Sequence record: OM386665.1
Strand: one strand, 5' to 3'
From: Escherichia phage vB_EcoM_ESCO56
Length of the DNA: 64,000 nt
A program made the position numbers and the translations under genes. The number at the start of each line of letters is the position of its first letter. Position 1 is the first letter of the stretch. Positions 47,500 through 59,921 of this stretch are shown in pieces. The notes beneath the pieces were generated by a model. That model ran no database searches. It saw nothing but the letters and a program-made list of their open reading frames with translations, and was not told the origin of the DNA.

Positions 47500-48354
47500 T
47501 TAGTCTTCTGTATCGAAGTCTTCATCTTCTTCGTCATCTGGGTCTGGCAAATCTTCTTCATCATCATCAGAATCATTCGAAGGTTTGTGGTCTGTTGCGT
47601 CTTCTTCAGTGACTTCACCGTTATCTTCAACACCATCAAGACCAAGCATAGCCAGTTCATCTTCATCCAGTTCAGGTTCACCATTAGCACCGTTACCGCC
47701 AGCGTAAGGTACAAGAGTATCAATGATAAACTGTTCCTGAATAGGTTTTGTCAGAACATTGTTCTCAAAAGTGTAGAAGTGAGTAGAAAGAATCACACTA
47801 CCGAAAGAACCGTTACCAACTGCAATGTCTGGATGAATTACATCATAGTTCTTGTCATCTTCATGTTTATCAGATGCTTGAGCTTTGATTTTCTTCATCG
47901 GCTGTTTAACAGCTACACGCTTACCATTTACTTCTTCAATCAGCATTACAGGGAATGACTGTTTAGCTGTCCATACAGCACCATCTTTATAAGCTGCTGC
48001 ACGACTTACTTTCAAGATGTGGTAAGTGTCTGCTTCAAAAGGTGGTTTACAACCAAACTTCTCTTCGAAGTCATCTGCATCAACTGCTTCAGTAGTGACT
48101 TTATCCCAACCTTCTGGGTTCTTCTTAGACTTAGTAAACTCTTTAAATAGTTTGTTACCGTCTTCTGCCAGAATTGATACGCTGTAGTTGCAGTCTTTGC
48201 CTGGGAATTTCTTATCAATAGACTTACCTTTCCCCGGACGTGGTGAAGTGTTCAGGTAATAAAACCAGACGTCTTTCAGCAGGTAACGCAGAGTTTGACG
48301 TTCAGTGCCATTGTACTTCTCTACCGGAGCTTTCATTTTAACAACTTTAGACAT
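47500..48354 (-). CDS. single-stranded DNA-binding protein-like (acidic C-terminal tail)
   Basis: 284 aa; C-terminus DSDDDEEDLPDPDDEEDEDFDTED ending near an aromatic residue, reminiscent of T7 gp2.5-type SSB tails. Confidence 0.5.
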   Translation of the reverse strand: MSKVVKMKAPVEKYNGTERQTLRYLLKDVWFYYLNTSPRPGKGKSIDKKFPGKDCNYSVSILAEDGNKLFKEFTKSKKNPEGWDKVTTEAVDADDFEEKFGCKPPFEADTYHILKVSRAAAYKDGAVWTAKQSFPVMLIEEVNGKRVAVKQPMKKIKAQASDKHEDDKNYDVIHPDIAVGNGSFGSVILSTHFYTFENNVLTKPIQEQFIIDTLVPYAGGNGANGEPELDEDELAMLGLDGVEDNGEVTEEDATDHKPSNDSDDDEEDLPDPDDEEDEDFDTED

Positions 48355-53045: not shown

Positions 53046-53302
53046 GTAAGCCTCTTTTAAGTAACTATTAAGTTTTAATCTTTTATCTTAACGTATTCTA
53101 TACGTTATACTTTAAAGCTTTTTAAAAGCTATTAAATAATCTTTTAAGAGTTTTAAAGTATCTGTATAGTTAAACTGTTAAGTAACCTTTTAAGTAAAAA
53201 CCCACTTCGCAAAGATTAACACCTTGTCAAGTACATTGTCAACTTGCTTTTTATAATTTTTTGCAGTAATGTATGAGGTTAATGATTGTAGAGGGAGTAA
53301 AA

Positions 53303-56002
53303 ATGGAAAACGTAGATTTTAAAAACTTACATTTAGTTGGCGATACAGAAACTGATGGTTTGCTCCTTGAGTTCACTAAAGTGCACGTAATGGCTTTCGC
53401 AGACTATAAATCTGACGATGAAGAGCCACCTGTATGGGTCTTTACAGATGAGCCTATCCTCGGTCACAAGTACACTAAGTACCTTAAGGGTGGTTTACGT
53501 GAAGGTGTTGAGTTTGCGTTAAAGGCAAAACGTCTTTGCATCCATAACGGTCTAGGTTATGACTGGTGGGTTTTCAATCACATTGCACCTGATTTATGGA
53601 ACTTTGATAATCCAAAGTGTAAACCGTGGAGTAATTTCTTTCAGGATTCTCTCATCCAGTCTCGTGTTCAGTGGATGGATAGGCCAACTCCAAAGGGTTA
53701 TAAAGGTGCTCATGGCTTGGCTGCATGGGGTGCTCGTGTTGGTGTTCGTAAACCAGAGATTGAACATTGGGGTGTGTGGAATGCAGAAATCTTCACTCGT
53801 GTTGTAGATGATATCCGTATTAACGCCAAAACTAAACGGGCACTTGATAACGAGTATCTCAAGCTTAAGAAGTGTGGCATAGACACTTATGAAACCTACA
53901 TGCGAGCTAAAGAAACATCTTTCTGGATGAGTCAACAAGCTATCAATGGTTGGAAAGCTGATAAAGAGCTTATGGAGTTCCATGTGAAGGAACTTGACAA
54001 GTTGACTAATGAGCTTGCTTCAGAGGTTGAACCACATCTTCCTCCAACTATTAAGACCAAAGGTAAAGTCACTGGAGAAGAGTTTGCAAAAGCTTGGAAT
54101 GAGTATGTTGAAACATTTGGTCATGCAGATGGACTGAAGAGAATTACCAAGTACCCTAAGACAAAGTATCGTCAGCAGGTACGTAATGGTGAGATGCAGA
54201 CTTATGAAATCAAACCATTTGGTAAGCCAACTACAAAGATTTTTAACATTGAAAAGAGAAATTGCTATACACCAACCAACACTGTAACTGGTGAAGAGTA
54301 CAAGGAAGGTTTTGTAGCAATGAAGGATGCTCGTGCAATTTGCAATGAGTTGAATGCAAAGATTGGTAAGAAGTGCAAAGACTGGAAGCCAGTAAAAACA
54401 GTCAAAACTGTGAAGTATTATAACAGCCACGTTGTTAACCACTTTGAACTTGAGTCAAGTCGCTACACAGGTTTGATTGATGCACCATATACACCAATTG
54501 AGTTTGAAGTTTCTCGTATGACTCAGGTAGCAGTTGTTAAAGACTACTTGAAATCAGTTGGTTGGATTCCAGATGACTGGAACTACAAGAAAGACTCAGA
54601 TGGTCGCCCTGTCAAAGTTTGTCGTTTCAAAGACAATAAAAAGATGATTACAAAGCATCCTAAGTGGCAGGAAATGGTTGAGCGGTGTGGTTTGAGTTAT
54701 GTTGAACATGAAGGTGTCCAGTACATTGAGCATAACTGGTCTGTGAAGAAATACACAGATTTGCTTGAGCCTTGCTTAATCCGTACTTCACCAAAACTTA
54801 CTGAATCATCTTATGATACGATTGAAGGTGAACTTGGACAGAAGATTGCTAAATACTATACTTTGATGCACCGACGCAGAACTATTGAGAACTCAAAGGA
54901 TGATGAAAAAGGTTGGTTGAACCAGATTCGTCCTGATGGTCGCCTTAGTGCTGGTGCAATGGTGTTTGGTACTTCAACTGGACGTATGACACAATATGGT
55001 ATTGTAAACGTACCGTCTGGTGCTGCTGTCTATGGAGCGCCTATGAGGGAAGTGTGGACTTGTGAAGATGGTACAGATATCATCTCCGTAGACCAAAACT
55101 CAGCCCAGCTAGTTCTTCTTTGTAACTTTATGGGTGATGAAGACTTCACTAAAGCGGTAACTGAGGGTAAAGAGTCAGTAGAGTTCACTAAGCAAGATGA
55201 TGGCAGATACTACTGTAAGCATCTTGACAAGTATCTTAACCCAGAAACTGACAAGTATCTTCGTTATGATGCTGAGAACGACCTCTATGAAGTCTACACA
55301 GGGACTGATGCGCATACACTGAACAGTATTTACTTTGGTCTGAACAAGGAAGAAGATATTGTTCGTTGTAGGGAGACACAGGATGAGGAACTTCTTCACG
55401 AGATTACAAAAGGTCGTAAGAAGAGCAAAAATGGCATCTACGCCCTGTTATTTGGAGCCGGAGACGAGAAGTTTGCAAAAACTATCAAGGCATCATCTAC
55501 GGAAGAAGGTGCATTGACTAAACAAACTTACTTTGTGCGTCTACCTAAGATTAAAAAGCTGCTCGATAGACTAGAGGAAGACTTCAAAGCAACTAAGAAA
55601 GCACTTGAAGAGGTTTTTGGAAAAACTTCTGCAATTGCCAAAGGTGGTTATATCAAAGTTGCTGGAGCGTGGTTATGGTGTAAATCTCCACATAAGTTAT
55701 TAAATTTCACACTTATGGGCAGTGAGGCGCAGGTGCAGAATGAGGGTATTAACTTGGCTAACAGAGAGTTAACAGAGCGCAAGCTTACAGTCCTAAATGG
55801 TCGGAAACCAGCTATTGGTGCTAGATGGGTCTGTAGTTACCACGACGAAGTTTCTTTAGAGGTTCCAACAAAAGATGTACCAGATGTTAAGGAGATTATT
55901 GATAGAATGTATGGTCAAGCATCAAAAAATCTTGGATTAAAGAGTAAGACGCTTGTTACAGGCACTGGTAAGGTAGGTAAGACATGGTACGCCGTACACT
56001 AA
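53303..56002 (+). CDS. DNA polymerase, family A, with 3'-5' exonuclease domain
   Basis: Track ORF 53273..56002 trimmed to ATG at 53303 (GAGGGAG RBS); Exo I motif LVGDTETDGL; polymerase motif C VCSYHDEVSLEV. Confidence 0.9.
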   Translation: MENVDFKNLHLVGDTETDGLLLEFTKVHVMAFADYKSDDEEPPVWVFTDEPILGHKYTKYLKGGLREGVEFALKAKRLCIHNGLGYDWWVFNHIAPDLWNFDNPKCKPWSNFFQDSLIQSRVQWMDRPTPKGYKGAHGLAAWGARVGVRKPEIEHWGVWNAEIFTRVVDDIRINAKTKRALDNEYLKLKKCGIDTYETYMRAKETSFWMSQQAINGWKADKELMEFHVKELDKLTNELASEVEPHLPPTIKTKGKVTGEEFAKAWNEYVETFGHADGLKRITKYPKTKYRQQVRNGEMQTYEIKPFGKPTTKIFNIEKRNCYTPTNTVTGEEYKEGFVAMKDARAICNELNAKIGKKCKDWKPVKTVKTVKYYNSHVVNHFELESSRYTGLIDAPYTPIEFEVSRMTQVAVVKDYLKSVGWIPDDWNYKKDSDGRPVKVCRFKDNKKMITKHPKWQEMVERCGLSYVEHEGVQYIEHNWSVKKYTDLLEPCLIRTSPKLTESSYDTIEGELGQKIAKYYTLMHRRRTIENSKDDEKGWLNQIRPDGRLSAGAMVFGTSTGRMTQYGIVNVPSGAAVYGAPMREVWTCEDGTDIISVDQNSAQLVLLCNFMGDEDFTKAVTEGKESVEFTKQDDGRYYCKHLDKYLNPETDKYLRYDAENDLYEVYTGTDAHTLNSIYFGLNKEEDIVRCRETQDEELLHEITKGRKKSKNGIYALLFGAGDEKFAKTIKASSTEEGALTKQTYFVRLPKIKKLLDRLEEDFKATKKALEEVFGKTSAIAKGGYIKVAGAWLWCKSPHKLLNFTLMGSEAQVQNEGINLANRELTERKLTVLNGRKPAIGARWVCSYHDEVSLEVPTKDVPDVKEIIDRMYGQASKNLGLKSKTLVTGTGKVGKTWYAVH

Positions 56003-56487
56003 CACTTCAAGATTACAAGGATAATTTTATTTACGACCCCGACAAAGGGGTCTTCTACAACAAGTATGACAGGAATAGGCAAGCTAAAGCTGGTCAGGTT
56101 GCCGGAGGAAGTGATGCTTATGGTTACAGGGTACTTAAATTCAAAGGTGTTGTAATAAAAGTACATCACCTTGTTTGGTGGTTTGAGCATGGTTACAAAC
56201 CTACTAAGATGATAGACCACATTGATGGTAATAGGAGTAATAACCACATTTCTAATCTTAGAGAGGCCGATAAATATGGAAACGCTCAAAACAGAGTAAA
56301 GCAGACGACTAACAAATCAGGTTACAAGGGTGTATATTACTTTAAAGACTGCAATAAGTGGAGGGCAGCTATAACATGCAGAGGTAAAAGGACATCACTT
56401 GGTTTATTTGACACACCTGAAGAAGCCCATAAAGCTTACTGTGAAGCTGCTGTAAAACTCCACGGAGAGTTTGCAAAACTAAGTTGA
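55984..56487 (+). CDS. HNH homing endonuclease with AP2-like DNA-binding domain
   Basis: 167 aa; HHLVWWFEHGY...IDHIDGNRSNNHISNLR (HNH) and YKGVYYFKDCNKWRAAITCRGKRTSLGLFDTPEEAHKAY (AP2-type); overlaps the last 19 nt of the polymerase gene. Confidence 0.8.
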   Translation: MVRRTLTLQDYKDNFIYDPDKGVFYNKYDRNRQAKAGQVAGGSDAYGYRVLKFKGVVIKVHHLVWWFEHGYKPTKMIDHIDGNRSNNHISNLREADKYGNAQNRVKQTTNKSGYKGVYYFKDCNKWRAAITCRGKRTSLGLFDTPEEAHKAYCEAAVKLHGEFAKLS

Positions 56488-56538
56488 CAAGGTGCTCAGG
56501 GAAGAGTACCTTATACTATATCTTATATAGGAGGGCTT

Positions 56539-56757
56539 ATGACACTTTCAGAGATTGAAGTTCAGTTGCAATGTGCTGGTTATTCTCAAAAAGAGATTGA
56601 AGGGATGTTTATTGTTCTTTGCAGTGGTTCCAGAAATTTGAAGGTAAGTCCTGAATTTCTGCGTAGAGTAGATATCTTTATTGCTGGAGGCAAAATTGCA
56701 AAAGACAAGACAGGGTACTTAAAAGGTGAGCGTGTAAATATTGAGAGTTTACTATGA
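56539..56757 (+). CDS. hypothetical protein, paralog A
   Basis: 72 aa; shares C-terminal motif GKIAKDKTGYLKGERVNIESL with ORF 56945..57178. Confidence 0.55.
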   Translation: MTLSEIEVQLQCAGYSQKEIEGMFIVLCSGSRNLKVSPEFLRRVDIFIAGGKIAKDKTGYLKGERVNIESLL

Positions 56758-56963
56758 GCCACCGTGGAAGAACCCATGCAGCGATGATGAAAGGTGCTTC
56801 AAAGGAAACTATCAAGAACCGTAAGCAGAAGTTGTTTGAGAGAATGAACAGGTTAATTGGCAATTCATCTCTTTCAGGTTCTGAGAAGGTTTTCTTGAAA
56901 GGTAATCTGAAAAGCATTGCACAAGAACTTATTGACATTGAGTATTGGAGACATCAAAAATGA
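56754..56963 (+). CDS. hypothetical basic protein
   Basis: 69 aa ORF between the two paralogs. Confidence 0.45.
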   Translation: MSHRGRTHAAMMKGASKETIKNRKQKLFERMNRLIGNSSLSGSEKVFLKGNLKSIAQELIDIEYWRHQK

Positions 56964-57178
56964 CACTTGCAGATGTTATTCAGCAACTTCACGACAATTG
57001 CTATACTCAAGAGATGATTCAGGAGATACCCATTGTAGTGATGCCTAGTAAGTTCGTAAAAACTTTTAATGGTGACTCTTTAAGGGCTGCACATATCCTT
57101 ATTGTTGACGGCAAGATTGCAAGAGACCGTACAGGAGTCCTTAAGGGCGAACGTATTAATATTGACTTATCCTTTTAA
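56945..57178 (+). CDS. hypothetical protein, paralog B
   Basis: 77 aa; C-terminal GKIARDRTGVLKGERINIDLSF. Confidence 0.55.
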   Translation: METSKMTLADVIQQLHDNCYTQEMIQEIPIVVMPSKFVKTFNGDSLRAAHILIVDGKIARDRTGVLKGERINIDLSF

Positions 57179-57187
57179 GGGAAAACG

Positions 57188-57394
57188 ATGGAAGTCCTAG
57201 TAAACTATACCTATCGTTATGATGTTGTTCACTCCACTACAACCGTAGCTCAACGTAATCCAATCGTCCCACGAGAAGGTGAGTTTGTTCGCATTGAGGG
57301 TTGGACTTACACTGTGGAAAGCATCATTCACAAGTTTGATGTTGCTGGTGATGTTCAAGTTATCGACGTAGAGATTGGTGGTAAGAGAAAATGA
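57188..57394 (+). CDS. hypothetical protein
   Basis: 68 aa ORF. Confidence 0.45.
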   Translation: MEVLVNYTYRYDVVHSTTTVAQRNPIVPREGEFVRIEGWTYTVESIIHKFDVAGDVQVIDVEIGGKRK

Positions 57395-58491
57395 CAACAC
57401 TGTACAAACAAAATAAAGATGGCTCTTTCAACGTCTGGTCATGCGTTGCTGTAGGTGACAAAGTTATTACAACCTACGGTAAAGAAAATGGCAAGATGAT
57501 GTTTGAAGAGTACACAGCAGAACCTAAAAACATCGGTAAAAAGAATGAGCGTAACGCTGAACAGCAAGCTCTCTTTGAAGTTGCTGCTAAGTATAAAAAG
57601 CAAGTTGACCGCAAAGGTTACGCTTACACAAAAGAGTCTGCACAGAATACTGAGAAGGTAGGTGTACAGCTTGCTCATGATGCTGCAAAGGTTAGCCATG
57701 CAAAGTATCTGAAGTTCCCTGCTGATGCTCAACCAAAACTTGATGGTGTACGTTGTAGAATTTCAAGAGATGCTGATTCAGTTAGCTTCACAGCTTATTC
57801 TCGTGAGAATACTGTTTACAACGTTCCAGCAGAACTAATCCCAGATTTGCTTTTGTTGCTTAAATTACATCCACAAGTTGAAGACTTTGATGGAGAGATT
57901 TATGCTCATGGTTGGGACTTAGAAGATATTGTGTCTATGATTAAGAATGCTGACAATCCAGACCGTCACCTTCTTAAATTCTACTGGTATGATATCTGTG
58001 ACAATTCAAAATCTTGGCCTGAGCGTCGTGAAGTTATTGATAACTCACCCATTGTTGAACTTGGGGATACCTGTAGAGTTGTTCCTGTACAGACTGTCCG
58101 TGTAAATTCTTGGGAAGAGTTTGATGAAGCTCATGATAAGTGGGTTGAAGCTAAGTTTGAAGGTGCAATGTACCGTTCAATCTCTGAAGACTCCTTCTAT
58201 GAGTGTTGTCACCGTTCATACTTCTTGATTAAGCACAAGAAGATGCACACTGAAGAGTTTAAAGTGACTGGTGTCAAGACCGATAAGCGTGGTCATGGTA
58301 AGTTCGTTGTAGAGACTCTTCCTAACGTCTTTGTAGATGTCTCATGGAAGACTACTCATGAGAAGAAACAGTATCTTGCTGAGCATCCTGAAGAGTTTAT
58401 CGGGAAGCCTTTAACGGTACAGTTTCAGAAGATGACTCGTAAGGGGTCTTTACAGTTCCCTGTTGGGCTAGTTATTCGAGATTATGAATAA
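57391..58491 (+). CDS. ATP-dependent DNA ligase
   Basis: 366 aa; motif I KLDGVRC, motif III FDGEIYAHG, motif IV EGAMYRS, motif V LIKHKK. Confidence 0.8.
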   Translation: MTTLYKQNKDGSFNVWSCVAVGDKVITTYGKENGKMMFEEYTAEPKNIGKKNERNAEQQALFEVAAKYKKQVDRKGYAYTKESAQNTEKVGVQLAHDAAKVSHAKYLKFPADAQPKLDGVRCRISRDADSVSFTAYSRENTVYNVPAELIPDLLLLLKLHPQVEDFDGEIYAHGWDLEDIVSMIKNADNPDRHLLKFYWYDICDNSKSWPERREVIDNSPIVELGDTCRVVPVQTVRVNSWEEFDEAHDKWVEAKFEGAMYRSISEDSFYECCHRSYFLIKHKKMHTEEFKVTGVKTDKRGHGKFVVETLPNVFVDVSWKTTHEKKQYLAEHPEEFIGKPLTVQFQKMTRKGSLQFPVGLVIRDYE

Positions 58492-58498
58492 AAAGTTG

Positions 58499-58526
58499 TT
58501 GACATAGAAAATTTGGTGAGTATACT
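58499..58526 (+). promoter_or_regulatory. sigma70-type promoter (TTGACA-N16-TATACT)
   Basis: -35 at 58499-58504, -10 at 58521-58526; nearly 350 nt of ORF-free sequence follow. Confidence 0.6.
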
Positions 58527-58532
58527 GAGCAG

Positions 58533-58700
58533 CATAAACCAACGGGTACTCACCAGCATCACTTAAGAGTCTTTTAAAAGGGTTTTTAAGTGATGTATGG
58601 TCATGCACGGTTTGGCCTGGTGTGGTAAGGCGCGGCTCGGCGAGGTGCGGTGAAGTATGGGTAGTCAGTCTCAGCTACATTAAAATGAGACTCACCTTTT
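58533..58700 (+). ncRNA. candidate sRNA (module copy A) carrying a period-5 GG tract and ending in a hairpin plus T-run
   Basis: Downstream of promoter 58499-58526; GG tract 58609-58664; GTCTCA-12 nt-TGAGAC hairpin then TCACCTTTTT at 58665-58700. Ends are inferred. Confidence 0.35.
58609..58664 (+). repeat. period-5 GG-phased tract, copy A
   Basis: ggttt ggcct ggtgt ggtaa ggcgc ggctc ggcga ggtgc ggtga agtat gggta. Confidence 0.85.
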
Positions 58701-58728
58701 TAAAAGGTCTTTAAGAGGGTCTTTTAAT

Positions 58729-58793
58729 AAGGTAAGGTAGGGCAAGGTGAGGTCAGGTCAGGTACGGTAAGGTAAAGCATGGGTGGATGGTAG
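58729..58793 (+). repeat. period-5 GG-phased tract, copy B, with flanking conserved module
   Basis: aaggt aaggt agggc aaggt gaggt caggt caggt acggt aaggt...; preceded by AAAAGGTCTTTAAGAGGGTCTTTTAATAAGG and followed by hairpin GGTAG-16 nt-CTACC (58789-58814). Confidence 0.85.
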
Positions 58794-58872
58794 TAGCCAC
58801 ATTAAAAATCTACCAAGTTTCTAAAGAGTCTTCTGTTGAGGGTTCTTTACAAACAACTTAACAATAAACTAA

Positions 58873-59478
<606 letters not shown>

Positions 59479-59480
59479 TT

Positions 59481-59921
59481 ATGAATACAAAAGCATTAGC
59501 AGCAAAGTTTAGTTACGGCGACACTGTATCACATTCTGAGATGGACACCTTCTTAGGTATTGTGAAGCCAACTTATCAAGGCGACATTGTTAAGTACGAA
59601 GATGAAATGAAGGCTTATGCACTTACACGTCTAAACCGACTTGAGAAGTTTATTGAGAAGCTTCTTAAAGAAGAGAAGATTTATCTGGTTGCTTCAATGG
59701 GTGTTGGTTATCGTGTGGTTGAACCTAAACATCAAGCAAATATTGCAAAACGTAAAATGTCTGGTAAGATTGGTCGTGCTTTAAAACAAGCCACTCAAGC
59801 AATTGAGAATGTGAACACTATGGCACTTAGCCATCAAGAACGTTCACGACTGATTGAACAGCAAAACCATTTAGCTGCTATGAAGGCTAACATTAACAAG
59901 CAACGCAGAAAACCTTTCTAA
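59481..59921 (+). CDS. hypothetical protein
   Basis: 146 aa ORF immediately after the preceding gene. Confidence 0.55.
   Translation: MNTKALAAKFSYGDTVSHSEMDTFLGIVKPTYQGDIVKYEDEMKAYALTRLNRLEKFIEKLLKEEKIYLVASMGVGYRVVEPKHQANIAKRKMSGKIGRALKQATQAIENVNTMALSHQERSRLIEQQNHLAAMKANINKQRRKPF

Follow-up and report, generated by a model that had tools for sequence, protein, structure and literature searches.

Between the DNA polymerase and DNA ligase genes of Escherichia phage vB_EcoM_ESCO56 lie two short open reading frames (ORFs) that end in the same motif, and the locus raises the question of what a phage does with two versions of one small protein: are they fast-evolving inhibitors of host functions, as proposed in a first-pass annotation, or do they belong with the replication genes that surround them? 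The whole stretch of phage DNA that was analysed, 64 kb in length, is hereafter called the window, and the interval of interest is organised as follows:

53273..56002, plus strand: DNA polymerase A
55984..56487, plus strand: HNH/AP2 homing endonuclease (Pfam HNH_3, E 1.7e-12; AP2, E 1.4e-10)
56484..56538, plus strand: conserved upstream element of 55 nt, from sequence comparison
56539..56757, plus strand: copy A, 72 aa, phrog_4230, A type (PHROG match)
56754..56963, plus strand: middle basic ORF, 69 aa, pI 10.6, phrog_5180 (PHROG match, E 2.3e-45)
56960..57178, plus strand: copy B, 72 aa, phrog_4230, of the B type common in Felix O1-like phages (PHROG match)
57188..57394, plus strand: 68-aa ORF, phrog_4427 (PHROG match, E 1.3e-44)
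57391..58491, plus strand: ATP-dependent DNA ligase (Pfam DNA_ligase_A_M, E 3.6e-8; phrog_114, E 2.1e-96)

This layout agrees with the first-pass annotation, which had placed the pair around a small basic ORF and between the HNH endonuclease and the ligase, with the addition of the 68-aa ORF between copy B and the ligase gene, the last of the gene string in the window. The limits given there for the first ORF are also retained, but the second had been started at TTG 56945 and its true start is ATG 56960 (MTLADV...). The start was moved because the homologues in our alignments and extracted loci all begin M[TK][LI] (except the N-terminally extended distant member P0159) and because ATG 56960 and the stop codon of the basic ORF overlap as ATGA; with this start, copies A and B have the same length, exactly 72 aa. 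ATGA stop/start overlaps also occur between copy A and the basic ORF and between the 68-aa ORF and the ligase gene; those of the basic ORF with the two copies imply translational coupling. PHROGs v4 annotates phrog_4230, phrog_5180 and phrog_4427 alike as of unknown function. Over 55900-58600 the window shares 98% identity with Escherichia phage vB_EcoM_ESCO45 and matches 259 phage records, nearly all Felix O1-like (Ounavirinae, Felixounavirus), with Escherichia, Salmonella, Shigella and Citrobacter as hosts. Two entries labelled Staphylococcus phage SA1 (GU169904) and Campylobacter phage A132 (MG065664) carry Felix O1-like sequence with 92% identity across the region and are probably chimeric or mislabelled.

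The surroundings deserve a brief description. Non-coding sequence of about 385 nt (58492..58875) comes after the ligase gene and may be a regulatory or origin-like region; it holds several repeats resembling 'tcttttaaaag', a (TAAGG)n tract (58728-58775) and, at 58499-58526, the sequence TTGACA-N16-TATACT, which resembles a strong sigma-70 promoter. Some relatives (e.g. phages skuden, radambza, momo and pinkbiff) have two 'DNA ligase' CDS annotated and match in 4-5 pieces, and the loci L005 and L011 have ~500 nt of extra sequence ahead of the ligase gene, which suggests insertions, possibly of homing endonucleases, in or beside the ligase gene. In the close relative Bas63, gene 35 (L034 26324..26623, minus strand) lies a few genes 3' of the ligase in the same gene string; its product Bas63-035, a putative transcriptional regulator, is reported to trigger the abortive-infection system DRT7 (2026 preprint, 10.64898/2026.04.18.719102). 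On the other side, a 284-aa ORF on the minus strand (47500..48354) adjoins the primase-helicase gene, ends in a strongly acidic C-terminal tail (...DDDEEDLPDPDDEEDEDFDTED) and looks like a putative single-stranded DNA-binding protein of the T7 gp2.5 type.

Are the two ORFs genes? They could be chance ORFs, or owe their similarity to a conserved DNA or RNA element, a reading that has their small size and nothing else in its favour and that we find hardly credible because: (i), identical residues are separated by many synonymous differences; in the shared C-terminal motif alone, 6 of the 13 identical residues are encoded by different codons in the DNA alignment of A and B, which argues for selection on the protein and not on a DNA element. 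(ii), dN/dS is far under 1, with a median of 0.15 for the B type (25 distinct sequences, 300 pairs) and of 0.09 among A-type orthologues, so that, as judged from the substitution pattern, purifying selection acts on both genes within each type. (iii), both AlphaFold models are confident (see below). (iv), the transcript of ORF93, the Felix O1 orthologue of copy B, was detected by RT-PCR with an expression maximum at 25 min, the same expression class as the Felix O1 polymerase (ORF96) and ligase (ORF88) (PMC3185647, Table 3) and, (v), Rfam yielded no match to a structured RNA family in 55500-59500. Copies A and B are therefore real protein-coding genes.

They are also genuine paralogues, as originally suspected. 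The two proteins align without gaps with 28 identities over 69 residues (41%) and 61% positives (BLASTP, E 4e-16), and each finds just the other when the whole 64-kb window is searched by tblastn (E 1e-11). What had been described is a shared C-terminal motif; the motif is present, but the similarity is wider. In a test with 5000 shuffles, z was 23.7 for the whole protein, and the two ends taken separately gave 5.9 (residues 1-28) and 18.4 (residues 46-72); both ends are significant, so the similarity extends beyond the motif. Between them, residues 29-45 are identical at 2 of 17 positions and their similarity is not detectable in the shuffle test. Nor is the match confined to a low-complexity stretch, the weakness that had been foreseen for it: the sequence entropy of the two copies (3.95-4.08 bits) shows that it is not of low complexity, and their composition is normal.

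Both copies are ordinary members of phrog_4230, which they match over practically its whole length (for copy A, E 1.2e-35, with residues 1-72 aligned to all 72 profile positions; for copy B, E 2e-39, with residues 1-70 aligned to positions 1-70). Copy B is 100% identical to ESCO56_00115 of phage vB_EcoM_ESCO56 and copy A is 97% identical to ESCO45_00051, itself a member of the family together with ESCO45_00049, Felix O1 ORF93 (NP_944952) and Bas63 gp44, all 'hypothetical proteins' of the same length and in the same genomic position. The window differs from most genomes, which have a single member, in having two, one from each of the two most divergent types. Synonymous sites are saturated between A and B (dS ~1, dN 0.59); thus, either the duplication is old or one copy was imported from a sister lineage. 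Taken together, the data show that copies A and B are anciently diverged full-length paralogues of a small single-domain alpha/beta family.

The fold of this family was examined with AlphaFold2, which modelled both copies with high pLDDT (91.4 for copy A, 91.8 for copy B). The models predict the same small alpha/beta fold for the two proteins: helices at residues 3-12 and 17-21, a strand at 25-28, a helix at 38-43, a hairpin formed by strands 46-49 and 52-56, and then the conserved loop. A Foldseek search of the PDB returned no convincing structural match. Neither copy matches anything in Pfam (E <= 1), NCBIfam or PADLOC, and 25 family members searched against Pfam at E <= 10 gave one unrelated weak match and nothing else; in particular, the SAP, HeH and Rho_N models left the N-terminal hairpin (residues 3-21) of the 25 members unmatched at this threshold. 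Profile searches against PDB sequences found just helical-hairpin look-alikes (de novo designed hairpins and DotG repeats, E 0.1-0.4). Two specific candidates were considered and rejected. The D-K-T-G motif of copy A recalls HAD/P-type ATPases, enzymes that carry a complete series of catalytic motifs on a Rossmann-like domain about 200 aa long; copy A has 72 aa and no Pfam match, and the HAD-like matches from Foldseek (E 5-9, probability 0.02-0.04) lead us to take the four-residue likeness as chance. A RecA/DnaB-type ATPase core (as in T4 gp41, T7 gp4, DnaB, RadA and RecA) was dismissed since the combination of Walker A/B motifs with a fold or profile match was not found, and an hhalign comparison of the family with the phage's own primase-helicase was negative.

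Wider searches brought up few proteins beyond the family itself. A HMMER profile search of 1.84 billion representative proteins matched 13 proteins, none of them an annotated relative and one of them, a repetitive 1484-aa protein, judged spurious. A word-indexed search with a broadened alignment gave 177 proteins, and the best 120 of these 177 are all close relatives. Neither the protein accessions nor the PHROG identifier came up in a literature search. The only non-self neighbour in the viral structure library is a 73-aa entry from phiEco32 (Kuravirus), which we equate, by its length and by sequence evidence, with gp100, an uncharacterised early protein (Foldseek probability 0.90, TM 0.60, 20% identity, E 0.28). 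By sequence, gp100 is the best non-self match of the family HMM among the phiEco32 ORFs (E 0.03), aligns with the family in hhalign (probability 54%, E 1.3e-4, 54 columns) and matches phrog_4230 with E 0.067. The two have in common a ...h-h-I-I-D-G-x-h-h-K-x-R-x-G pattern; unlike the family, gp100 has no LKGER tail and is extended at its N terminus, and its gene sits among early genes, not between polymerase and ligase. A relationship is thus possible but marginal, with weak backing from the three methods.

How widely is the family kept? By tblastn, 254 phage records contain a member, and all of them appear to be Felix O1-like. The B type, defined by at least 60% identity to copy B, is present in 219 of the 254, the A type in 65 and both in about 34 (~13%). 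When 32 Felix O1-like loci were compared, none lacked a member in the polymerase-ligase interval, and the arrangements varied. Copy A, basic ORF and copy B follow each other in the window, ESCO45 and UAB_Phi87; Sf13 and Moogle have A and the basic ORF without B; Felix O1 and Bas63 have the basic ORF and B (gp45 and gp44, respectively, in Bas63); and wV8 and VpaE1 have B alone. Still other types occupy the first position in Michonne and in the metagenomic members P0145 and P0146, with the basic ORF next in each. The basic ORF is found 3' of every first-position A-like member seen, is missing from 11 of the 32 loci and is 81-99% identical wherever found. The 68-aa ORF is present in all 32 loci, and besides it the phrog_4230 member is the only small gene kept in all of them.

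In distant relatives the family member is the sole small gene of the interval that is kept. The gene order is polA, 75 aa, member, ligase in locus L031; polA, 83 aa, member, 61 aa, 112 aa, ligase in L037; and polA, member, zinc-ribbon ORF in L036. The distant members P0153, P0156 and P0152 lie in polA-x-member-ligase, polA-x-member-x-x-ligase and polA-member arrangements, respectively. Compared with the window, the L031 member is 43% identical (to copy A), the ligase 39% and the polymerase 65%, which indicates that the family has changed about as fast as the core enzymes encoded next to it. These comparisons show that phrog_4230 is specific to Felix O1-like phages (Ounavirinae) and is effectively a core gene of their replication module.

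This constancy contrasts with the mosaic around it. Optional cassettes of the polymerase-ligase interval include HNH variants, a 48-aa ORF, a lipoprotein-like 85-aa ORF (matching Pfam DUF4884 in some genomes) and a zinc-ribbon-like 72-aa ORF (sometimes duplicated), with ATGA overlaps joining the small genes. The first 14 nt of copies A and B are identical but for one base, and a 21-nt direct repeat of the 3' end of the basic ORF flanks B in Bas63-like genomes (L018 2980-3000 and 3211-3231); short repeats of this kind at the junctions explain why each gene is present or absent with such precision. Judging from the junction sequences, then, copy number changes through cassette-like recombination at short conserved gene junctions. 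In Michonne-type relatives, the slot 3' of the basic ORF, which copy B fills in the window, holds a 67-aa ORF (phrog_3474; Citrobacter phage Michonne, L035 5422..5625; also L039 4396..4605) that matches the Pfam model Tad2-like (Thoeris anti-defence 2-like) at the borderline (E 3e-5, 24.9 bits for a cut-off of 25), a hint that the interval can carry anti-defence genes. The HNH endonuclease is itself optional, being of the window type, a variant 40-49% identical or absent in related loci. We considered a linkage between the endonuclease and the copies and rejected it: A, B and A+B arrangements all occur with the window-type HNH, with other variants and with none. As a separate observation, the 200 C-terminal residues of the polymerase are 99-100% identical to those of the window only in loci with the window-type HNH and 72-78% identical otherwise (55400..56487 compared with L001-L030), which looks like co-conversion of the flanks with the homing endonuclease.

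The string of small genes is preceded by an element that is even more constant. The 55 nt at 56484..56538 (TTGACAAGGTGCTCAKGGAAGAGTACCTTATACTATATCTTRTATAGGAGG) occur once in the window and consist of a perfect -35 hexamer TTGACA (56484-56489), then GGTGCTCAGGGAAGAGTACCTTATACTATATCTTATAT, then the Shine-Dalgarno sequence AGGAGG (56529-56534), directly before which lies the palindrome CTATAT-CTT-ATATAG. The element is near-identical in all Felix O1-like loci examined, whether A, the basic ORF or B comes next and whether the HNH or the polymerase gene is upstream; its conservation exceeds that of the downstream genes, and even the distant locus L036 has a recognisable version. The -35 hexamer has no canonical -10 hexamer 16-18 nt away (a TATACT is found 22 nt downstream), which is why a simple sigma-70 scan missed it. 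In L031 the corresponding place is taken by an ordinary TTGACA-N16-TATAAT promoter. The element probably serves the small-gene/ligase unit as its promoter and 5' leader.

An autoregulatory role might be read from this arrangement, the family protein binding the element or its transcript to set the expression of the small genes and the ligase. The position of the element always ahead of the string, its conservation beyond that of the genes behind it and the palindrome would suit such a role, and the missing -10 at normal spacing would fit dependence on a factor. The protein side argues otherwise: copies A and B are near neutral (pI 7.8 and 6.0), domain scans detected no helix-turn-helix or other nucleic-acid-binding domain in the family proteins, and L031 keeps the protein with its ordinary promoter instead of the element. 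We thus regard autoregulation as very improbable.

Constraint is unevenly distributed along the protein. Its deeply different types (A, Moogle-A, P0145, P0146, Michonne and B) differ mainly in residues 29-45. Between the A-lineage types (A, Moogle-A, P0145 and P0146), pN/pS is 0.08-0.33 for codons 1-28 and 46-64 (0.08-0.19 where A or Moogle-A is compared) and 0.36-0.97 for codons 29-45; between A and B it reaches 1.15 for the latter segment. Since synonymous sites are near saturation, positive selection on codons 29-45 cannot be claimed, and the middle segment (a loop and the helix 38-43) appears from these comparisons to be either unconstrained or repeatedly replaced. At the other extreme, the invariant or near-invariant polar residues K52, D56, T58, G59, K62, G63 and E64 cluster in the hairpin and the loop, where they form part of an invariant motif, G51-K-I-x-[KR]-D56-[KR]-T58-G59-x-L-K-G63-E64.

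The first-pass annotation had suggested fast-evolving inhibitors, and with these data its two parts can be weighed. 'Fast-evolving' holds at most for residues 29-45, unconstrained between types; the genes as a whole, with their low dN/dS within types, their presence in 254 records and their retention in 32 of 32 loci, do not fit the description, and by these sequence measures phrog_4230 behaves as a core gene and not as an arms-race accessory. An inhibitory function is a separate matter. Copies A and B might act early in infection as inhibitors of a host protein, with their diverged sequences tracking variants of the target; they are indeed small, phage-specific and devoid of a known domain, they sit in a mosaic interval of optional small genes, and the several deeply different types, differing mainly in one segment, could be what such tracking leaves behind. 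The strong purifying selection within types (dN/dS 0.09-0.15), the near-universal retention, the position kept in distant relatives and a divergence like that of the ligase rather argue against it. Moreover, genomes with A, B or A+B all infect closely related enterobacteria (Escherichia, Shigella, Salmonella and Citrobacter). The essential proteins of these four genera barely differ. The Felix O1 orthologue, finally, peaks at 25 min with the replication genes and not at 5 min (PMC3185647). On balance, an early host-directed inhibitor seems unlikely to us.

Much the same evidence bears on a role against bacterial immunity, in which the family would neutralise an immune system and A and B would cover different variants of it. 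The polymerase-ligase interval is a hot spot of gain and loss, the Michonne-type relatives carry their borderline Tad2-like ORF precisely in the slot of copy B, and the middle segment is highly variable between types. Against this, copies A and B match no anti-defence or defence-related model (Tad2-like, PF11195, matches neither them nor the 25 family members at E <= 10), and retention in every locus compared together with low dN/dS would be unusual for counter-defence genes. A PhageMaP knockout map exists for most genes of Bas63, a close relative whose gp44 is of the B type and orthologous to copy B; the PhageMaP text does not mention gp44, and the counter-defence genes it names (g79, g130 and others) include neither gp44 nor gp45. 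An anti-defence function is, in our estimate, distinctly unlikely.

We tentatively favour, as a possibility that falls short of an even chance, a non-enzymatic small binding module of replication or repair. The N-terminal helical hairpin together with the invariant hairpin and loop would form a constant face for docking to a conserved partner, which would most likely belong to the replication machinery of the phage or of the host, while segment 29-45, wholly different between types, would tune a second contact. Copies A and B would then be interchangeable isoforms of one function, and carrying both would broaden the second specificity. We infer the link to replication from gene order, from the timing of co-transcription and from the pattern of conservation. 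In phages, conserved gene order often has causes other than function, and the optional accessory genes that crowd the polymerase-ligase interval mean that the neighbourhood argues equally for an accessory, host-directed role. The possible remote relative gp100 of phiEco32, encoded among early genes and away from the replication genes, counts against a role in replication. As the copies are not basic, direct DNA binding is not suggested.

A bolder and, in our judgement, improbable version of the binding-module proposal would make the family a two-faced adaptor of a fold unseen in solved structures. Its constant face (the N-terminal hairpin and the invariant D-[KR]-T-G-x-L-K-G-E loop) would sit on the replication machinery of phage or host, where it might mimic the subunit-interface hairpin of a RecA/DnaB-type hexameric helicase, and segment 29-45 would recognise a variable factor, e.g. 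a host defence or a competitor element attacking the replisome; carrying A and B together would widen the range of factors recognised.

Small non-enzymatic proteins encoded among replication genes are familiar from phage T7, whose gp5.5, gp5.7, gp5.9 and gp1.2 are host-directed inhibitors that act by binding proteins. The A/B family resembles them in being encoded beside polymerase and ligase and co-expressed with replication genes; we found no similarity of sequence or fold between them, and no such T7 protein is known to belong to a conserved paralogous pair, so that the comparison serves as a working analogy only.

The pair belongs to an already catalogued and well-documented family, and its existence is as such not a surprise. 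Felix O1-like phages are widely used in the typing of Salmonella and E. coli, in biocontrol and in therapy, and to our knowledge most of their small genes have no known function. If the phrog_4230 proteins are replication accessory factors, they would be a new component of the T7-like replisome in this group of phages; if they are host-directed, their constant ends and variable middle would offer a compact model for the evolution of binding specificity.
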